Source: Candidatus Baldrarchaeota archaeon (GTDB lineage Archaea; Asgardarchaeota; Baldrarchaeia; Baldrarchaeales; DXJG01). Taken from it: a stretch of 32,000 bases of DNA. Below the pieces are notes generated by a model. The model saw nothing but the letters and a program-made list of their open reading frames with translations. It ran no database searches and was not told the origin of the DNA. A program made the translations under genes and the position numbers. This document shows positions 1,969-11,775 of this stretch, piece by piece (the stretch's first letter is position 1; each line of letters starts with the position of its first letter). The stretch lies in the NCBI GenBank assembly GCA_019056805.1, contig DXJG01000006.1:1-32000 (forward strand), given 5' to 3'.

Positions 1969-3363
1969 TTGGATTTTGATGAAATTGTAGAATATTATTC
2001 TAAGCCGATTGTGAGAAAGGAAATTGTAGAGTATTCACGAGGCAGATGGATTGCTATACATACGTTAAGAGGGGGATTAACAGGACTTTTTGTCCGATAT
2101 TGGAGTAAAACTGGGCCACCGCTACATATTTCTAAAGAAGAAGATCTGGATGGGTTGATGAAGAGGTTTCGGGGTTTAAGACCTAGAACCTTTTATGCAT
2201 CCATAAACGTATATTCTAGGATTTTAAGGAGAGAAGATGTAGAGAATCCTGACAATATTCTATATACTACTCCTATATGGGATATTGATGGATCTTTAGA
2301 ATACTGGGACAAAGTTATCGACGTAGCGAGAGTAATAGTTGATGAACTTGAAAAAGAAGGAGTTTCAAAATCAATATATCTTAAATGGTCTGGAAGAGGA
2401 ATACATATCCATTTACATGAAAAAGCCATTTCAAGCGACGTTTTGTCGAAACATCACCCTCTAGATATAGCTTACTCAATCGTCGACTACATAATTAAAA
2501 AGTGTACAGATAAAATCGTTGAAATCATAAAAAATGTTACAGGTGGAGAAAGACCGTTAAAAGTCGAAAATGAAATGGACCTTAAAAGAGTATTTACAGT
2601 TCCTCTTTCACTCCATAAATCTCTGGACTATGCGGTTATATGCTTTAAACCTAATGAACTAGATGAATTTACTACCGAATGGGCTAAGCCCGACGTATTA
2701 AAACACAATACTGATTGGAGAAGTTATAGTGAAGGAGAAGCTGACGCACTTGCTTTGAAAGCTATGAAGGAAATTGGAGGATACTTTAAGAGGGTTGGCG
2801 AAATTAGAACCGTTGTGCAAACCGTAGAACCTACAATTACTAGGAAGGTTAGTAGAAAACCTACTATGAAAGTAGGTAGATTTCAAGTTATGGCCCTTCT
2901 TCAAGCAGCAAGATACTATCTTTTAACCGGAGATCTTGAAAAAGCGAAATCTTTTGGCCTTAATAGAGCTATATTTTATGCTTGGGCTAAATATCATGGT
3001 AGAGATAGAATATTTAAGAGAAAACTAACGGGTAGAGAAAAAGAGGTTGAATATACCGTTGAACGAGGGAGAAGACTGGTTTATGTTGGCGATGAGGGAG
3101 CCTTTATGTCTGAACGTGGATGGTTCATAATTGGTGATAAAGAACAATTACCTAGTGATTATGATAAAGAAATTGCTAGAAAAATAGACTCTATTGTTCC
3201 ATACGATTTAGCTTGGAAAAGTGCCGTGGAATATTTAAAGAAATTCCCCAAAAACGTTTTACTAAATCAGCAAAAATTTTTCAATGAGGCGTATAAGAGA
3301 GTGAGAGATATCTTCATAGATAAAATTGTTAAAGTCAAAGGATTTGATAGGCCTTTATCATAA
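1969..3363 (+). CDS. Uncharacterised AEP (archaeo-eukaryotic primase/polymerase) superfamily protein fused to a C-terminal domain of unknown function
   Basis: AEP motif I WDID (D105, D107), motif II WSGRGIH (H146) and motif III MDLKRVFTVPLSLH (D204). A Pro/Thr/Lys linker leads to a second domain of about 165 aa starting MKVGRFQVMALLQAAR. Confidence 0.8.
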   Translation: MDFDEIVEYYSKPIVRKEIVEYSRGRWIAIHTLRGGLTGLFVRYWSKTGPPLHISKEEDLDGLMKRFRGLRPRTFYASINVYSRILRREDVENPDNILYTTPIWDIDGSLEYWDKVIDVARVIVDELEKEGVSKSIYLKWSGRGIHIHLHEKAISSDVLSKHHPLDIAYSIVDYIIKKCTDKIVEIIKNVTGGERPLKVENEMDLKRVFTVPLSLHKSLDYAVICFKPNELDEFTTEWAKPDVLKHNTDWRSYSEGEADALALKAMKEIGGYFKRVGEIRTVVQTVEPTITRKVSRKPTMKVGRFQVMALLQAARYYLLTGDLEKAKSFGLNRAIFYAWAKYHGRDRIFKRKLTGREKEVEYTVERGRRLVYVGDEGAFMSERGWFIIGDKEQLPSDYDKEIARKIDSIVPYDLAWKSAVEYLKKFPKNVLLNQQKFFNEAYKRVRDIFIDKIVKVKGFDRPLS

Positions 3364-3372
3364 TTTTTAATT

Positions 3373-4644
3373 TTATTTCTCTGCTTTAGGCAGTGGCGGT
3401 ATCAAAGGAACTTTTGCTGGTGCTATTCTTCTCGTCTCCTTTAACAGCAAGAAGGAAAGAGCAGTTATTGCTCTCAAAATTACACTTATCGTTAACACCG
3501 TGTTTAAAGCTTGTATTTCGCTTTGAAACGTTTGGAAAAACATACCTAGATAGCCACTAAACATTGGACCTATGGAAAAGGCTAAACCAGTTATCGTGTT
3601 ATATGTAGCGAAGTAAGTTCCTCGTTCATGTTCCCCTGAAACATCCAATATATAAGCTGAGATGGCAACCATAGATAATCCGTTAGATATACCACCTATA
3701 ATATTCGCAAGATAAACATAATACATATTTTGAGATAAAATAAATAGAAACGGGTACAAAGGTAACATTATTCGCGATACCACTATTATCGGCTTTCTTC
3801 CAAACCTATCTGCAAGCTTACCCAAGTAAAATTGACTTAAAGAAGCAGTAACCCCAAATATTATCGATGCAATAGCTATTTCAAATTTAGAAGCTTGCAA
3901 TTTCCTTATCATTACAACCGAGAAATAAGGCCAAGACATACTCATAGCTACTCCAAAAATCACCTCTAAAGAACAAAGTCTTCGAAAATACTTATTCTTA
4001 AGAGTTTCCTTAATTGCTCTTTTTAACCCTTGATAGACGGGTGTACCTCCATCCTCAACCGGCTCCCTAAACTTCAAAATGAGTAGAGATCCTAATACGC
4101 CGAAAATAGCGGCTGCTGTAAAAGCAAAAGTATATTGAGATTCTAAAGTAGCTCCCATTATCCAAGTCATAACTATTCCCGCTATAGCTGTTGCAGACAC
4201 TCTCGCTGCAAAAGCTATTCCATTTATTTTACCAAGAGCTTTTCCTCGGACTTTTTCAGGTATTATTTTGCCTAGTAAAGCGTTCCATGCTGGTACTGCA
4301 GCAGACAATATAACAAAGTGAATAGCCAGGAACAATGCAAAAAGCATTGGGGTTTTAGCAAAGAGAAATAAGAGTATTAAAGTACTACCTACAAGATATC
4401 CGAAAAACATGAAGGGTTTCCGTTTTCCTATTTTATCTGATAGTCCTCCCCAAATTGGTTGTAATATTGTTGGCGCAGCGGTGCTAACAGCTGTTATTAT
4501 ACCCATTTCACCGTAAGTTGCCTCTCTTTCCACCGCATATATGTTAAGGTATGGTTGGTATAACCCTCCACTGAATGAGAGGAAACATGCTGTAGCATAT
4601 ATTACTGGTGGAATACCACTGTTCTTACTGTCTTCATTGGCCAT
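3373..4644 (-). CDS. MFS transporter
   Basis: About 12 TM segments with motif A twice (GGLSDKIGKRK and GKLADRFGRK). Start placed at ATG 4644 (MANED) with upstream GGGGGA rather than at 4716. Confidence 0.9.
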   Translation of the reverse strand: MANEDSKNSGIPPVIYATACFLSFSGGLYQPYLNIYAVEREATYGEMGIITAVSTAAPTILQPIWGGLSDKIGKRKPFMFFGYLVGSTLILLFLFAKTPMLFALFLAIHFVILSAAVPAWNALLGKIIPEKVRGKALGKINGIAFAARVSATAIAGIVMTWIMGATLESQYTFAFTAAAIFGVLGSLLILKFREPVEDGGTPVYQGLKRAIKETLKNKYFRRLCSLEVIFGVAMSMSWPYFSVVMIRKLQASKFEIAIASIIFGVTASLSQFYLGKLADRFGRKPIIVVSRIMLPLYPFLFILSQNMYYVYLANIIGGISNGLSMVAISAYILDVSGEHERGTYFATYNTITGLAFSIGPMFSGYLGMFFQTFQSEIQALNTVLTISVILRAITALSFLLLKETRRIAPAKVPLIPPLPKAEK

Positions 4645-4881
4645 CGCTCTTAATCCCCCGCAGTACACATGCAACAAACCAATAAGATTTAAACCTATCG
4701 ATACCGGCTTTAACAATGTATTAATTAGTAGTCGGGCGAGTTAAACAAATAAGAAAAGCTCCACACACTACATTTGTTAAAGAGAAGACAATAAAGTTAT
4801 TTACATAATTTAAATATTAAATTCATAACCAAGAGGACTAGTATGTGGCATCAAAATTAAAACATCAATTGAGATGGTCGT

Positions 4882-5376
4882 ATGTTCAAAAACAAAATTC
4901 CTTTAATTGTTTTATCTCTTTTAGCATTTCCTCTAGCCTCGATATTTGGATATTTCACTTACCACTATTTTCACCTAGCCGCATTAAGCATACATGAGGC
5001 TATACCTGATGAAGCTGTCCTTTTTCTCCCAGTTTTCGCCACTTTGTGGCTTATTCCAACATCTATTGTTGTTCATTTTTCAGCTAAACATTTACATGGA
5101 AAAGGAAGCTACTTGCAAGACCTTGCTGCACTTGGCTTAGCTTTAGCTTTTGTGGACTTACTTATGTGGTTTGGCTGGCTTGGAGGACCATTAACCTTCT
5201 GGTTAGCGCTTGTAATATGTTTTTTCCCATATGTGCTACTACATGGCTGGTTGTTGAAAAATATTCATGAACTAGATTTATATCGTGCTATGTTTGTAGG
5301 CATAGCTGTTTTCTTAACTACACTCTTTGGTTTTATGGTAGCAGTAGAATTGTTAGGATACTTGTACTGGTTATAG
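4882..5376 (+). CDS. Membrane protein, Yip1-like
   Basis: Five hydrophobic segments; HFSAKHLHGKGSY...LAALGLA resembles the Yip1-family loop motif. Confidence 0.6.
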   Translation: MFKNKIPLIVLSLLAFPLASIFGYFTYHYFHLAALSIHEAIPDEAVLFLPVFATLWLIPTSIVVHFSAKHLHGKGSYLQDLAALGLALAFVDLLMWFGWLGGPLTFWLALVICFFPYVLLHGWLLKNIHELDLYRAMFVGIAVFLTTLFGFMVAVELLGYLYWL

Positions 5377-5579
5377 GCAACAAGGCATGTACTTTCACGC
5401 TTTTATATTTAAAATTTTAAGGTAATGGATACTCCTCGTATTACTTAAGCTAAGTTATTAAGTTTTGTGAACAGCTTCATCAACATTTAAAATATAAGCT
5501 TAAAGAGAAATAAATGGATGTTATCTTCTACTAAATGTTTAAAGTTATTTCGTTTTACATTTTATGTTGGTGGTTTGCT

Positions 5580-5858
5580 ATGGCCTTGGTGCTAAATAAC
5601 TCTGATAATGTTGCTGTTGCTTTAAGGGATTTGAAGCCAGGAGACGTTATTAACGTATTCTTAGGGGACATGGTTAAAGTTGTTAAAATCAGAGATAAAA
5701 TTCCTAAAGGACATAAATTTGCAATTAAAAATATCAAGAAGGGTGAAAAGGTTTTAAAATACGGTGAGATTATTGGCATCGCTTCTAAAGACATTTTAGA
5801 GGGAGAACATGTACATGTTCACAATGTTATAAGTTATTATAAGGTCTCTATGGGATAA
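5580..5858 (+). CDS. uxaA: UxaA-family dehydratase small (SAF) subunit, SuyA-like
   Basis: DNVAVALRDL, IPKGHKFA, KYGEIIG and GEHVHVHNV motifs. ATG 5580 follows a GGTGG RBS. Confidence 0.88.
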   Translation: MALVLNNSDNVAVALRDLKPGDVINVFLGDMVKVVKIRDKIPKGHKFAIKNIKKGEKVLKYGEIIGIASKDILEGEHVHVHNVISYYKVSMG

Positions 5859-5862
5859 GAAC

Positions 5863-6839
5863 ATGAAGTTAACTAATATGGAAAACAAGTGCAAGAGGGA
5901 ACATCATAGTTCCGAATTGAATGATCAGTTATCAATAGTTTCTGAACTATCTCTTGAGGATGTAAATCTTGTTAAGAAGATGTTTATTGAACATAAAGAT
6001 GAGGAATTTGTTTATCTTCAAAACATTTACTTATATGACGTATTTTATCACGCTAAATCTTCTAGCCCCCTCATAATAAAAATTGGAAACAACATCGTTG
6101 GAAGCTTATATGCTGCCAAATTTTTTTCAACTCAGGTTACATAGGTGGAGTACTTATACATCGAAAATATAGAAGAAAAGGCATCGGAACACTACTTCTT
6201 AAAAAAGCTTTAGAATGGCTAAAAACACCTCATACATTCCTTTTCGTCGAACCTGAAAACATCGCTGCACAAAAATTGTTTAGGAAATGCGGATTCAAAA
6301 TTCTCTATAGAAGAGTTATATGTCAAGGAGTATACAAACCAAGCAAAGCTCATGAAGATATTAAAACCTATGTCGATTTAAATGAACTTAGTGAAACTAA
6401 ATGCTTTAATAAAAGACAAGGTGTCATACACCTAGGATATTACCCTGTTAAACTGAGCGAAAAAGCATTAAAAACTTTAGAAAGCCAAGGTAAAGTCCTA
6501 AACTACAAATCTACCACCCTAATTTATGAACTTTCTAAAATAGTTAAAATGGGAGAATACGAATTCACCTTTAACAATTATATATTAGAGGAAATTAAAG
6601 ATAAAATACCTCTTACCATAATGGGAAATGTTATTGAGATAAACCCCTTCCATAAAAAACTAGTCAAGAAAGATTTCTCCAAGTTATTAGAACACTTAAG
6701 ACATTTGTACGGCAATATCCAAATGTATGTGTTGACCTATGAAAATGATCCAATCATAAAAGTACTAAAAGAGCTAGGTTTTAAATGTAGACTAGGGGCT
6801 TACGTAATGTGCGCCAATACCGTTAATGTTACATTATGA
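5863..6839 (+). pseudogene. GNAT acetyltransferase with one frameshift, or a sequence error
   Basis: The frame of ORF 6276-6839 is open back to 6126 and reads FNSGYIGGVLIHRKYRRKGIGTLLLKKALEWLK...ENIAAQKLFRKCGF (GNAT motifs A and B). It joins ORF 5863-6144 at the T7 run 6121-6127, giving about 325 aa. Confidence 0.85.
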
Positions 6840-6880
6840 ATAAGGTAGAGAAAAATTCCAAAAATGTATGTGGTGATCAT

Positions 6881-8050
6881 TTGCCTAGAAATATTGATTT
6901 TGAGGGTTATATTAGACCTGATGGAAGTGTTGGCGTTAGGAACCATGTTCTTGTTATTCCTACTGTTGTTTGTAGTGCTCATGTTGCTGAGAAAATTTCC
7001 TGTAGTGTCAACGGTTCTACTTGTATTGTTCATCAACATGGTTGTGCTCAAGCTGGGGAAGATCTTGAACGAACTTTTAAAATTCTTTCTGGCTTTGGGA
7101 AAAATCCTAATGTTGCAAGCGTTCTTATCGTTGCCTTGGGTTGTGAAGCTATTTCATGTGAAAAGCTTGCCGATGAGATTTCTAAGTCAGGTAAACCTGT
7201 TGAAACTTTAATTATTCAAGAAGAAAAAGGGCTTAAAGAGGTCATTGAAAAGGGAATAAACATTGTTAGAAAACTTGTTGAAGAAGCTTCTCATCTTAAA
7301 AGAGAAAAGGTTGACTTAAGCGGCTTAATTGTTGCTGTTGAGTGTGGTGGTTCTGACTGGACTTCTGGTCTTGCTTCAAATCCAGCTGTTGGGTACGCGA
7401 TGGATCTTATAGTTGATAATGGTGGTCGTATCGTTTTTTCTGAAACAACTGAAATTATTGGTGGAGAACGTATTTTAGCTAAGCGATGTATTAACGATAA
7501 AGTTCGAGAGAAACTGCTAAAAATTGTTTCTAGAGTTATTGAAAGAGCTAGATGCGAAGGTATCGACTTAATTGGCACTAATCCTGCCCCAGGAAACATT
7601 AAAGGAGGTCTCTCTACTATCGAGGAAAAATCTCTCGGAGCTATTCTTAAATCTGGATCAAAAACCATCATAGATGTTTTAGAATATGGTGAAGAAATTC
7701 CTAGTAAGAGTGGATGCTATTTTATGGATACTCCCGGACAAGATGTAGAATCTATTTGCGGCATGGTTGCTGGAGGAGCCCAACTCGTTGTCTTTACCAC
7801 TGGTCTCGGTACACCAACCGGAAACCCTATTGTCCCAGTAATTAAAGTCACTGGTAATCTTGATACCTTTAAGAAAATGCCAGATATTATCGATATTTAT
7901 TTGGAAATTATTGAGGAAAAAGAGACTATCGAAGAAGCTGGTAGAAGAATTTTTGGAAAAATTCTCGAAGTTGCTTCTGGCGTTAAAACTTGTTCAGAAA
8001 TAAATGGAAATAAAGAATTTGCTATTTTTAGAACTGGATACACTTATTAA
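6881..8050 (+). CDS. uxaA: UxaA/GarD-family dehydratase large subunit, SuyB-like
   Basis: GYIRPDGSVGVRNHV, HQHGCAQ, ECGGSD, NPAPGNIKGGL, DTPGQD and FTTGLG motifs. Probable start is TTG 6881 after GGTGA; the ORF extends up to 6836. Confidence 0.9.
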   Translation: MPRNIDFEGYIRPDGSVGVRNHVLVIPTVVCSAHVAEKISCSVNGSTCIVHQHGCAQAGEDLERTFKILSGFGKNPNVASVLIVALGCEAISCEKLADEISKSGKPVETLIIQEEKGLKEVIEKGINIVRKLVEEASHLKREKVDLSGLIVAVECGGSDWTSGLASNPAVGYAMDLIVDNGGRIVFSETTEIIGGERILAKRCINDKVREKLLKIVSRVIERARCEGIDLIGTNPAPGNIKGGLSTIEEKSLGAILKSGSKTIIDVLEYGEEIPSKSGCYFMDTPGQDVESICGMVAGGAQLVVFTTGLGTPTGNPIVPVIKVTGNLDTFKKMPDIIDIYLEIIEEKETIEEAGRRIFGKILEVASGVKTCSEINGNKEFAIFRTGYTY

Positions 8051-8073
8051 CATAACTTAACAGTATTTTTAGT

Positions 8074-8751
8074 TCATAGAAGAGATTTATGTTCAAGCTT
8101 CTGTTTTATTTTTTCTATTATGTTTAGTTCTTGAAGCATATTATGTGTTTTCGTGTTTTTTCCAACCTTGATAAACTCTATGAGATCTTCCGGTTTATCT
8201 ATATCAAGAGCTATCCTTGGATTTTTATAAACTTTAAAATGCACATTATTCGCTAACGCTATCTCTCGATGTTTCTCAAAACTTCCAACTCCGTATCTAG
8301 GTGAAATTATATTTGGCGGCTGTCTAAATAAAAGATTTGTACCATAGCCGTCTTTTGAAGGCGAAATTACCACTATTTCTTCAATGTTTTTTCCCATAGA
8401 TACTGCTTCATCTATATCCTCCGGTTTAATTAATGGAATGTCCATGGGAACTATTGTAACATTTTTTGCACCCATTTTCATACAATAATTGGTAGCTATC
8501 ATTAATGACTCATTTAACCCTTTACCACTGTCATGTAGTGCCCTTATTCCAAAATTTTTAGCTTTTGCAAGAACTTTAACATCATTGGTAACCACGATTG
8601 TGTAATCGAGTTGTTTTGAACGAATTAAAGCATTTACAACATCTTCAAACATCGTTAGGCAGAGTAAATGGCGTTCATGTTCCTCTAATAGAGGCGCTAG
8701 TCTATGTTTTGCTTTATCTAACACTTTTACAGGAACTATTGCAAAAGACAA
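8074..8751 (-). CDS. cofC: 2-phospho-L-lactate/PEP guanylyltransferase
   Basis: IVPVK...AKHRLAPLL, LNESL, PMDIPLI, GTNLL, RYGVGSF..H and LDIDKPEDL motifs. Confidence 0.93.
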   Translation of the reverse strand: MSFAIVPVKVLDKAKHRLAPLLEEHERHLLCLTMFEDVVNALIRSKQLDYTIVVTNDVKVLAKAKNFGIRALHDSGKGLNESLMIATNYCMKMGAKNVTIVPMDIPLIKPEDIDEAVSMGKNIEEIVVISPSKDGYGTNLLFRQPPNIISPRYGVGSFEKHREIALANNVHFKVYKNPRIALDIDKPEDLIEFIKVGKNTKTHNMLQELNIIEKIKQKLEHKSLL

Positions 8752-8835
8752 ATTACCACAACTCCCTTACCATTATTCCACTCAATGTTAGGCACTCTAC
8801 GGCATCTTTGCAAGTTAATTTTTATCTTTAACCTG

Positions 8836-8846
8836 TATAAACTTTT
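8836..8846 (-). promoter_or_regulatory. BRE-TATA upstream of cofC
   Basis: The minus strand reads AAAAGTTTATA in the 137-nt gap between the MFS gene and cofC. Confidence 0.5.
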
Positions 8847-8888
8847 ATTTGAAGCTTCCGTATCCTAGATTTTAAGTGTTTATTAACT

Positions 8889-10217
8889 TTATTTTGTTTC
8901 TGGCATCTTTAGAACAATTAACAGAATACTGTATGCTATAGTCAAAGTGGCGACTAAATACGGTATATTAGGTCCAATAAATGAGTAAATTGCACCAGCT
9001 GCTAAGGTAGTAATACTAGCTGTTATGTTAATTATTAGTCCGATTACGGAATTTATTCGCCCTCGAAATTCTAAAGGAGTAAGATCTGTAGTTATTGCAT
9101 TAATAACAATGAACCAAATGGAAAAACCTATTGATGTTAAACTTACAGCAACCAAAGTCAAGATAAATGGATTAGCTGTTACATAAGGTGTTATAAAAAG
9201 AAGGAAATCACCAAATAATTGGGAAATAGCAGAAACTATGATAACAGGTTTTCGACCAATTTTATCAATAAAAAATCCAGAGGGCAAAGTAACGAGGATG
9301 CCAAGAAAATTACTTACTATGAAAATGTAACCCCAAGTGATTTCATCGATTCCAAGAAAATAGACAGAATAATAAGCTGTAAGAAAGCTCATCGAGGCTG
9401 CTACACTAATAACAACATCTATTAGAAGAAGATATTTCAAATTTTCCTTTATGAAGTTTAAAGCTTTCTTATATCCTTCTTTAAACGATAATTGCTTATT
9501 TTCTAACGATTCTTCTCTAAGCAACGTTTCTTTAAGAAATACTGCCCTAATTATAACAACAGTCATACCGCTAAAGAAAGTTAAAAGATAGGCAAGCCTA
9601 ATTGCTGGGACCAGTGTATATCGAGAGATCAAGTAAATAGCTAAAGCGGGTGAAAACGATGCTATAATACTCGGCAAGAAATTATATAGTGAAAATATTT
9701 TTCCACGTTTTTCTTTTGGTGTAGAATCTGACATTAAACTCCATAAAGCTGGTTGATACATCAAAGCAACGCTTGATAAAAATGCGCCAATAACAAGCCA
9801 AGTCCAATCTGGTGAAAAAGCATAAATCAAATATGATGAACTAACTAATGCAGTCATATAAACAACGATTTTCTTTCTGCCGTATTTATCTGCTACATAA
9901 CCTCCTATAAGTCTTGAAAAGCCAAGAGTTATTGTTGAAACAAAAGAAATCACTGCAAGAATTACAGGAGTAGCCCCTAATTCTTTTGCATATAATTGAA
10001 AGTAAGGATGAGTCATATATTGAAAAGGTGCCCAAATAACCCAACTTAGAACCAGACCAAAAACATTCCACTTATAAATTCTTCTAAGATGTTCTTCGTA
10101 GTGTTCATCGAATTCTTTCATAGCCCTTGTTAAATTAAATATGCTTAAAAATATTTTGCGTCTTACTCTTCTCCCAAATTTAACAAAGCTTTGCAACACA
10201 CCACTTAAAAACTTCAT
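8889..10217 (-). CDS. MFS transporter inside the F420 cluster
   Basis: About 12 TM segments with GGYVADKYGRK and GFFIDKIGRK motifs. An alternative start is ATG 10121 (MKEFD). Confidence 0.9.
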   Translation of the reverse strand: MKFLSGVLQSFVKFGRRVRRKIFLSIFNLTRAMKEFDEHYEEHLRRIYKWNVFGLVLSWVIWAPFQYMTHPYFQLYAKELGATPVILAVISFVSTITLGFSRLIGGYVADKYGRKKIVVYMTALVSSSYLIYAFSPDWTWLVIGAFLSSVALMYQPALWSLMSDSTPKEKRGKIFSLYNFLPSIIASFSPALAIYLISRYTLVPAIRLAYLLTFFSGMTVVIIRAVFLKETLLREESLENKQLSFKEGYKKALNFIKENLKYLLLIDVVISVAASMSFLTAYYSVYFLGIDEITWGYIFIVSNFLGILVTLPSGFFIDKIGRKPVIIVSAISQLFGDFLLFITPYVTANPFILTLVAVSLTSIGFSIWFIVINAITTDLTPLEFRGRINSVIGLIINITASITTLAAGAIYSFIGPNIPYLVATLTIAYSILLIVLKMPETK

Positions 10218-10230
10218 ATAAATAAAATTG

Positions 10231-11157
10231 TTAGAGACTCAAACAGTTTAGAGCTTCTTTTGCAAGTCTTATTTTGTCTTCGAGTGTTTTCATTATGGTG
10301 TTGGTTACGGAAACTTTTATTCCAAGTTCCTCTATTCTATATTTCAAGTCTTTATCAACGTTATCTATAATTAAAACATCAATAATGTCTTTATACACTT
10401 TAGCTACACCGACCGCTGATACTTCGATTCCTAATCCTCGCATTAATTTGTCAGCTGGACCTTTTATAGGTGCTCCACCTACAATGGGACTTATAGCAAC
10501 AATTTTTGCTTCTGTTTTCTTCATAGCTTCTTTTACACCTTTAACAGACAATATTGGGCCTATACTTACAATGGGGTTACTTGGACAAATAATAATTCCA
10601 TCGGCATTCAATATAGACTCTATTACTCCGGGAGCTGGTTCAGCTTTTTCTATACCCTCAAATTTTACATCCAAAACAGGGTCCTGGGCCTTTCTTTTAA
10701 CCAAATATTCTTGGAAATGCATCTCACCAACGTTAGTAACTATCTTTGTTTGCACTCTATCATTTGTCATAGGAATTATTTTCACCTTAACTCCCAAGGT
10801 TTTTCGAATATTCTCCGTAACTTCTGACAGTTTCAACCCTTTTTTCAACAATATTGTTCTATGGATATGAGTTGCTAAGTCTTTATCTCCAAGCATAAAC
10901 CATGTTTCATAGCCATACTTTCTAAGCATATCTAAACAGTTGAAAGTATCTTCACGGATCCCCCAACCTTTTTCTTGATCAACAATGTTTGCAAGAGTAT
11001 AGGTAACTATATCAACGTCAGGAGAAATATGTAGTCCATAAAACTCGATATCATCTGCAGTATTAACTATTGTAACTATTTCTTCAGGTGGAACAACATG
11101 AACTAGTCCTTGTAGAAATCTTGCAGCTCCAACTCCTCCAGCTAATGTAGTTATCAT
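10231..11157 (-). CDS. cofD: 2-phospho-L-lactate transferase (LPPG:FO)
   Basis: LAGGVGAARFL, NTADD, ISPDVD, WFMLGDKDLATH, HFQEY, PSNPIVSIGPIL and GPADKLM motifs. Confidence 0.96.
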   Translation of the reverse strand: MITTLAGGVGAARFLQGLVHVVPPEEIVTIVNTADDIEFYGLHISPDVDIVTYTLANIVDQEKGWGIREDTFNCLDMLRKYGYETWFMLGDKDLATHIHRTILLKKGLKLSEVTENIRKTLGVKVKIIPMTNDRVQTKIVTNVGEMHFQEYLVKRKAQDPVLDVKFEGIEKAEPAPGVIESILNADGIIICPSNPIVSIGPILSVKGVKEAMKKTEAKIVAISPIVGGAPIKGPADKLMRGLGIEVSAVGVAKVYKDIIDVLIIDNVDKDLKYRIEELGIKVSVTNTIMKTLEDKIRLAKEALNCLSL

Positions 11158-11775
11158 TTACCATCCCTCCCAATGTAAAATTTCTTCAATAGGCTTTCTA
11201 GGTGGAGGTAAAGGCTGTTCATCCGGGTAACCCACTTCTATTAATGCTTGAGGTTCCACGTCTTCTGGAATATTTAAAACCTTCCTAACTATTTTCTTTG
11301 CGAAGAGAGGAGCACATCTCCAACATGCACCCAACCCTTCAACATACGCAGCTAGCAATAGGTTTTGAATCGCCGCCGCAACACTTTGAACAGCCATAAC
11401 ATACTCCGCCTTTTGTCTCCTTTCGTCAGGATATTTATCCATATCGCGCATAGTTAAACAAGCAATTATTAAGACCGGTGCACTAATCATTCTCCTAATA
11501 GAGGTTTTAACCCTTTTCTCACATTCCTGTTTTGAAAAACCATTAGCCAAAAGATCTTCCCTAAATTTTTCACCCATACTTATTGCAAGCCTTTCTTTTA
11601 CTTCACGACTTCTTATTATGATAAAATGCCACGGCTGAGCATTATGAGCTGATGGTGCCCATATAGCCGCTTTAATCAGCCTTAACAAAACTTCTTTTTC
11701 AACAGGCTTATCTTTAAACTTCCTAACGGTTCTCCTGTTCTCAATTACTCTATAAAAATATTCAATGTCCTCCAT
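11158..11775 (-). CDS. Nitroreductase-family protein resembling the FbiB C-terminal domain / FbiE (dehydro-F420-0 reductase)
   Basis: RRTVRKF, APSAHNAQPWHF and MAVQSVAAAIQNLLLAA..EGLGACWRCAPLF motifs. Its stop codon abuts the cofD ATG with a 0-nt gap. Confidence 0.8.
   Translation of the reverse strand: MEDIEYFYRVIENRRTVRKFKDKPVEKEVLLRLIKAAIWAPSAHNAQPWHFIIIRSREVKERLAISMGEKFREDLLANGFSKQECEKRVKTSIRRMISAPVLIIACLTMRDMDKYPDERRQKAEYVMAVQSVAAAIQNLLLAAYVEGLGACWRCAPLFAKKIVRKVLNIPEDVEPQALIEVGYPDEQPLPPPRKPIEEILHWEGW

Follow-up and report, generated by a model that had tools for sequence, protein, structure and literature searches.

Repair polymerases that belong to the superfamily of archaeo-eukaryotic primases (AEPs) are well studied in bacteria, where LigD and Prim-PolC have been described; to our knowledge, almost nothing is known about them in archaea outside a few Ku-bearing lineages. 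The gene studied here lies in a window of 32,000 nt (the whole stretch of DNA that was analyzed) from the genome of a Candidatus Baldrarchaeota archaeon (assembly GCA_019056805.1), and it encodes a protein in which an N-terminal AEP domain is fused to a C-terminal domain of 165 residues, the C-domain. The closest studied analogy would be the mycobacterial Prim-PolC (PolD1) with LigC (PDB 5op0 and 6sa0), with LigD coming next. According to one report (PMC5663958), the Prim-PolC and LigC pair fills short gaps and then seals them in excision repair. The window protein shares only 12–13% sequence identity with Prim-PolC, which has no counterpart of the C-domain, and no LigC-type operon was found in the window. 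Structural likeness was also observed to the LigD polymerase domain and the archaeal nonhomologous end-joining (NHEJ) polymerase (Pseudomonas aeruginosa 2fao, Mycobacterium tuberculosis 2iru and Methanocella paludicola 5dmu), whereas the window polypeptide carries neither a phosphoesterase nor a ligase module, and the tethered C-domain is not known from LigD systems. Unlike PriS/Pri1, the protein has no Zn knuckle, no priL near its gene in the window and a different C-terminal domain. With slightly better than even confidence, we read it as a non-replicative AEP repair polymerase tethered to an accessory domain of ∼165 aa and having a Ku-independent role in gap filling or end repair. An earlier note, made from the sequence alone, had proposed a separate system, for repair or nucleotidyl transfer, that is equipped with a nucleic-acid-binding module of its own, and the evidence presented below favors that proposal.

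The open reading frame (ORF) contained no internal stop, and the initiator Met of the homologues fell at the same aligned position as the start of the window protein. Conservation was scored in an alignment of 33 full-length homologues, which were 48–86% identical to the window protein. The AEP motifs reported in the earlier note were found intact at D105/D107, H146 and D204, with D107, H146 and D204 invariant and D105 conserved at 90% or more. Motif II was also invariant at S141, G142 and G144, and the motif III region at R207, V208, F209, T210, P212, L213 and H216. As judged from the alignment, this conservation reflects selection and not chance. Since the protein has only two cysteines (Cys179 and Cys225), neither a PriS-type zinc element between motifs I and II nor an Fe-S cluster is possible.

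The AlphaFold2 model of the whole protein, built on the same 33-homologue alignment, had a mean pLDDT of 86.7, with blocks of the N-domain mostly at 91–98 and the motif blocks located in high-pLDDT parts. When this model was searched with Foldseek, AEP structures were matched at E ∼2e-5. According to the re-alignment of the structure matches with VIA-align, the AEP match covered aa 1–279, and the nearest structural neighbors were bacterial Prim-PolC and the LigD/NHEJ polymerase domains, both closer than PriS. The AEP fold that had been proposed from the motifs is backed by this confident model and by the structure matches, so that both the fold and the motifs of the superfamily were recovered. 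By sequence profiles, the window protein fell below the cut-off of Pfam LigD_Prim-Pol (PF21686; 13.5–14.7 bits vs 27.4) and did not match DNA_primase_S (PF01896); an NCBIfam scan matched nothing, and a sequence search against solved structures with the whole protein and both family alignments gave nothing meaningful. Among the 33 relatives, weak hits to DNA_primase_S were obtained in 14 (best E 5e-4) and to LigD_Prim-Pol in nine, all of them below the cut-off; the best LigD_Prim-Pol score of any relative was 24.6 bits (P0146). The N-domain is, by its modeled fold, a repair-type AEP polymerase and, by its sequence, a family of its own.

The sub-threshold DNA_primase_S matches and the intact catalytic residues would also suit the main rival explanation, according to which the protein is a specialized second primase for re-priming or replication restart (PrimPol-like), and the C-domain is a helper that holds the initiating nucleotide and the template, much as the PriL-CTD, PriX or PriCT helix bundles do in other AEPs. 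As stated in two reports (PMC2965215; PMC5862659), dinucleotide synthesis by many AEPs depends on a helical helper domain fused to them; in addition, full-length homologues were ∼50% identical across Bathyarchaeia, Nezhaarchaeales, Methanomethylicia and Nitrososphaerota, which suggests a housekeeping role. We nevertheless regard a re-priming primase as unlikely, given that the structure is nearer to the repair polymerases than to PriS and that the C-domain keeps other company, as described below.

The genome assembly (1.92 Mb in 18 contigs, 91% complete) was found to contain a canonical PriL-PriS-Gins51 cluster on contig 6 (95850–99479), a contig other than that of the window gene. Its genes overlap and lie on one strand, and PriL scored 91 bits (DNA_primase_lrg) and PriS 66.8 bits (DNA_primase_S). 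Because this cluster is present elsewhere, the window gene is an additional AEP and not the replicative primase; the earlier note had likewise kept the enzyme apart from PriS, and its counter-case, in which this protein would be the only PriS of the genome, does not hold. Two full-length paralogues of the ATP-dependent DNA ligase were located on contig 9 (240945–241544 and 473695–474282; 590- and 576-aa frames), and neither Ku nor a bona fide LigD_Prim-Pol was detected in this 91% complete genome.

The division of the protein into an AEP part, a linker and a second domain of ∼165 aa from M300 (nt 2866) was also confirmed, both in the sequence and in the model. The linker varied in length and sequence between the homologues, its residues 287–299 had pLDDT values below 50, and the whole-protein model had a pTM of 0.62 with the linker disordered; in the model, the two domains look flexibly tethered. 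When the C-domain was modeled by itself, from an alignment that contained both fused and stand-alone members, the pLDDT was 88.9 and the pTM 0.85, and the model consisted of a long helical hairpin, followed by a small four-strand sheet and then five helices. The hairpin helices (304–320 and 323–343) had block-mean pLDDT values of ∼84–94 in the whole-protein model and 98 when folded alone. Invariant positions of the hairpin in the homologues included G303, R304, F305, M308, L310–A313, R315 and A326–A334, and long invariant runs (GRFQVM..LLQAAR and AKSFGLNRA.FY.WAK) were observed in the C-terminal part.

The C-domain model was unmatched among solved structures (best Foldseek E 0.7), and neither Pfam nor NCBIfam had a family for residues 300–464; Pfam searches with 30 family members likewise gave none. 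Among the structure matches listed for the model there was no PriX, PriCT, PriL-CTD, OB or ligase chain, and the lack of the first three may count against a re-priming primase. In the AlphaFold DB clusters, the first matches were members of the family, namely stand-alone proteins of 207 and 150 aa and a two-domain form of 396 aa. Next came uncharacterized proteins of eukaryotes (fungi, green algae and protists, to judge from the form of the accession codes; probability 0.98–1.0, TM by query 0.45–0.55, ∼15% identity, E 6e-3 to 0.25), for example R4XFD0, E1Z7W2, A0A0N0NKG9, A0A1Y1IBP5 and M5EBP5 (256–528 aa). As a lead from the models, these eukaryotic proteins may be distant relatives of the C-domain.

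Many proteins of 150–215 aa were found to start exactly at the equivalent of M300, in agreement with the statement in the earlier note that shorter proteins carry the RFQVM..LQAAR motif alone. The C-domain of the window protein aligned end to end with 18 such stand-alone proteins at 28–53% identity, the invariant hairpin included. The description of the C-domain as a once-separate gene therefore stands insofar as it is a separate gene elsewhere, but the wording presumes a direction (fusion or fission). When ten candidates for other fusions of the C-domain (including P0182 and P0248) were searched with Pfam, one unrelated M24 peptidase hit was obtained, and this fusion is probably a chimeric gene call.

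A word-indexed search retrieved 617 relatives at E ≤1e-3, all of them unnamed or annotated as hypothetical; the closest protein cluster (86% identity) carried the source names Baldrarchaeia and Odinarchaeota. An exhaustive HMMER search gave 257 clusters at 50% identity, including N-only proteins of ∼280–420 aa and C-only proteins of ∼150–215 aa. In a scan of one genome per GTDB species, the C-domain was encoded in at least 559 genomes. The carriers on named contigs were Thermofilaceae, Desulfurococcales, Bathyarchaeia, non-ammonia-oxidizing Nitrososphaeria, Methanomethylicia and Nezhaarchaeales, with Korarchaeia-like archaea, Brockarchaeota and Culexarchaeota as further carriers; the Asgard carriers were Baldr, Odin, Njord and Asgardarchaeum. 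Within the phylum of the window genome, 41 of 400 genomes had a match, some with the fused form, some with split N and C genes and many with the C-domain alone.

In P0181, P0179, P0185, P0187 and P0190 (366–433 aa), the C-domain was well conserved (55% identity), but both the region of motif I and the aspartate of motif III had been lost from the AEP part of P0181 and its relatives; from their sequences, these AEP halves look inactivated. The C-domain is the more persistent half, since it is kept alone or behind a decayed AEP in some lineages, which speaks against a re-priming primase. In a tree of 117 C-domains, two deep clades were separated with a support of 100: clade 1 held the bacterial ligase-coupled proteins together with Asgard stand-alone copies, and clade 2 held the fused and the split forms of archaea. 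The window protein fell into clade 2, where it grouped with Baldr/Odin and Thermofilaceae sequences.

Some intermediate arrangements were also noted. Some Asgard genomes have split N-only genes of 418–429 aa with an extra tail of ∼130 aa that belongs to no family; in the same genomes a stand-alone C-domain was found that falls into the bacterial-type clade, and a few have the fused form too, and their bins may be mixed. One archaeal genome has an N-only AEP (408 aa, 2037–3263) and a C-only gene (5980–6498) on the same strand, with 2.7 kb between them, an arrangement that may be intermediate between the split and fused states.

The genomic context of the stand-alone C-domain was analyzed in 80 metagenomic loci of the stand-alone subfamily, retrieved with a bacterial-type profile, 74 of which were not cut by a contig end. 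In the first case found, the stand-alone C-domain gene abutted the gene for a protein of 431 aa that contains the adenylation domain of a ligase. Of the 74 loci, 41 had a ligase consisting only of the nucleotidyltransferase (NTase) domain (∼190 aa) directly upstream on the same strand, and another 15 had a 416–467-aa fusion of an AEP-like half with a C-terminal NTase half there; a ligase core without an OB domain thus directly preceded the C-domain gene in 56 loci in total. The gaps between the two genes were mostly −37 to +31 nt, and most pairs abutted or overlapped. The strongest genomic partner of the C-domain is a ligase core and not a primase or helicase, which is a further point against a re-priming primase. 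The hosts of this operon, according to source names and neighbors, were the thermophilic WOR-3, Thermodesulfobacteria, Aerophobetes, Omnitrophica, Coprothermobacterota and Caldisericota.

The NTase carried the KxDG lysine of motif I (EPKIDGWR) and motifs III, IIIa, IV and V, and it ended at WRKIK; because it ends after motif V, it has no OB domain. It matched Pfam DNA_ligase_A_M at E 1e-20 to 1e-23, and its sequence relatives in the PDB were DNA ligases. It also matched Pfam RNA_ligase weakly (E 1e-5 to 1e-7), as would be expected if the family acted on RNA in repair or tailing, with the AEP adding ribonucleotides and the C-domain partnering RNA-ligase-like NTases. The report on Prim-PolC (PMC5663958), in which repair AEPs of this kind are described as preferring ribonucleotides, agrees with such a role, but the far better match to DNA_ligase_A_M and the genes associated with the family (DNA glycosylase, photolyase, RuvC/RuvA and canonical DNA ligase) make it improbable. 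In a WOR-3 genome, a one-strand run (4387–8317) comprised genes for a 3-methyladenine-type DNA glycosylase, the OB-less NTase ligase and the C-domain, which overlapped, and then for a DUF1722/2-thiouracil desulfurase-like protein and a DNA photolyase; after this run comes a type III CRISPR Cmr locus. In a Thermodesulfobacteria genome, the ligase and C-domain pair stood beside YebC-RuvC-RuvA, with the two sets of genes on opposite strands.

The partner protein of the bacterial OB-less ligase is homologous to the C-domain of the window protein, with the same hairpin motifs and a place in the same tree, and stand-alone members in general share 37–48% identity with the C-domain of the window protein, against 46–66% within the stand-alone subfamily. 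Both the bacterial operon and the window gene combine an AEP with the C-domain. In bacteria, however, the C-domain is a separate gene coupled to an OB-less ligase core, whereas the window genome has it fused to the polymerase and encodes no ligases other than full-length ones. The bacterial AEP-like half, which in nine further loci was encoded by a gene of its own (231 aa), carries the motifs LDIDP, TGNG and D-LPRIGKVIGT; it is only remotely similar to the AEP domain of the window family, with which it aligned in the correct motif register and with weak statistics (hhalign probability 14.5%, E 0.0019). A complex prediction for a bacterial NTase-only ligase and the downstream C-domain protein gave a score of 0.00; it was run without controls and weighs neither way.

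Binding to DNA (a nick, a gap or a 5′-phosphate end) or coupling to a ligase is the most likely role of the C-domain. This role is suggested because the C-domain accompanies ligase cores that are without the DNA-clamping OB domain, because it is flexibly tethered, because many invariant Arg, Lys, Gln and Asn residues lie in the hairpin that forms its most conserved surface, and because it persists where the polymerase half has decayed. In the proposed mechanism, the AEP domain, with a two-metal site formed by D105, D107 and D204 and with H146 contacting the nucleotide, would fill short gaps, or act at broken ends, by extending a 3′ end, and it may also prime. The tethered C-domain would hold the enzyme on nicked or gapped DNA by means of the near-invariant basic/polar hairpin; alternatively, it may pass the extended DNA on to a ligase of the ATP-dependent type. 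Combined with one of the genome's two full-length ligases, this would give a Ku-independent fill-and-seal route analogous to Prim-PolC/LigC or LigD. Polymerase activity, DNA and not RNA as the substrate, and the binding target of the C-domain are what we infer here.

The link to ligases in archaea was analyzed in 80 named loci. One single-copy neighbor gene recurred around the fused archaeal gene, namely that of a canonical DNA ligase in which the N, M and C domains are all present. It lay within 6 kb in six of these loci, of which three were from Nezhaarchaeales and one each from a Korarchaeia-like archaeon, Bathyarchaeota and Thermoprotei, and it was directly downstream of the fused gene in Nezhaarchaeales. 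By a rough chance expectation for a gene present in one to two copies, 0.5–1 such loci of 80 would be expected, and the proximity of the ligase is suggestive. The other recurring clusters around the fused form were rejected, since they either belong to families with many paralogues (DHO dehydrogenase/Fer4 as well as ABC and MFS transporters) or reflect lineage-local synteny. In Thermofilaceae, stand-alone C-domain genes are translationally coupled to a gene of 570 aa that looks like a Na+/H+ antiporter; this was considered incidental, and the GNAT genes near some loci were too common to weigh.

Several observations weigh against a repair polymerase that works with a ligase. No ligase or repair gene stands beside the gene in the window, and most archaeal loci show no conserved neighborhood. 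By sequence, according to the Pfam results for the 33 members, the N-domain is equally close to PriS and the LigD polymerase. The tight ligase coupling lies in the other deep clade and not in that of the window protein. An OB-less ligase or an A4-type AEP was found neither in the window genome nor in the five Asgard and five Thermoproteota genomes carrying the C-domain that were searched; these archaeal genomes have only full-length ligases, usually two or three. Because the archaeal ligases already have OB domains, the logic of the missing OB domain in bacteria is not directly transferable, and carrying the bacterial evidence over to the archaeal clade is the weakest point of our reading. The earlier statement that ligase and replication genes are missing from the neighborhood holds for the window but not for the family as a whole, in which the C-domain is tightly linked to ligases; a comparison of the neighborhoods of the two forms, which the earlier note had proposed as a check, showed that the stand-alone C-domain is ligase-coupled and that the fused form is mostly without conserved neighbors.

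No description of the family was found in the literature library that was searched, and the 2025 studies of Asgard replication and primases that were found treat PriS and PriL only. What appears to be new is a probable repair AEP with a widely conserved accessory domain, and the connection of the archaeal fusion and the bacterial ligase operon through this domain. A tentative and rather doubtful extension would take the C-domain for an ancient repair module of TACK and Asgard archaea and thermophilic bacteria, in which a fill-and-seal pathway independent of Ku would use it as the subunit that holds the DNA or activates the ligase; it would replace the OB domain for minimal ligases, be tethered to the polymerase in archaea and have distant descendants in eukaryotes, namely the fungal, algal and protist proteins matched by its model. 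The OB domain is thought to be necessary for ligase function. The function of the C-domain would explain how minimal ligases without it work, define a repair route in organisms without Ku and test the descent of the eukaryotic look-alikes.

The coordinates of the gene and its parts are listed in Table 1.

Table 1. Positions of the AEP and C-domain fusion gene and of its domains and motifs in the window.
Feature	Position (nt)	Strand	Remarks
Whole gene, AEP and C-domain fusion protein, 464 aa	1969..3363	+	TTG start; stop 3361-3363; from ORF list and translation
N-terminal AEP (primase-polymerase) domain, aa 1-281	1969..2811	+	
AEP motif I, WDID, aa 104-107 (D105, D107)	2278..2289	+	
AEP motif II, SGRGIH, aa 141-146 (H146)	2389..2406	+	
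AEP motif III region, MDLKRVFTVPLSLH (D204)	2575..2616	+	MDLKRVF... starts at aa 203
Flexible linker, aa 282-299	2812..2865	+	VVQTVEPT... from aa 282; variable in alignment; low pLDDT
C-terminal domain, predicted fold unlike any solved one, aa 300-464	2866..3360	+	In-frame Met 300, MKVGRFQ
C-domain helical hairpin, nearly invariant (GRFQVMALLQAAR...AKSFGLNRAIFYAWAK), aa 303-343	2875..2997	+	

Within ∼8 kb, the gene is flanked by genes for a GNAT protein, MFS transporters, a SAF domain protein and altronate dehydratase, CofC, CofD and a nitroreductase. This setting bears on the explanation that the gene is a domesticated or resident replicase of a mobile element or defense system, a prim-pol of the plasmid or virus type that would have no core role in the cell. 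Many prokaryotic AEPs derive from mobile elements (PMC5862659), and the gene lies 2 kb from the contig end, next to a weak PIN-like ORF and a possibly broken GNAT gene. Such an origin is very improbable, however, since the neighbors are metabolic, no helicase, integrase or repeats were found near the gene in the window, the relatives occur in varied chromosomal contexts (contigs up to 776 kb) and mostly one copy per genome was found. The family showed no signs of mobile elements and is spread broadly over the Thermoproteota classes. A tRNA scan of the window gave none.

The GNAT gene directly upstream (1373–1904, + strand) consists of two overlapping ORFs (1373–1687 and 1680–1904), only the second of which matches GNAT models; there is an A-run at ∼1675–1690, and a frameshift or an error in sequencing close to it probably explains the split. 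Near the contig end (254–995, + strand), an 86-aa ORF abuts a 159-aa ORF with a weak PIN match (E 0.008, 17.3 bits vs a cut-off of 23.6), and the two may be a toxin-antitoxin pair. On the opposite strand (8074–11775), CofC (8074–8751), CofD (10231–11157) and a nitroreductase-family gene (11158–11775) were located, with an MFS transporter between them, and the CofC, CofD and nitroreductase genes suggest coenzyme F420 synthesis by this Asgard genome.

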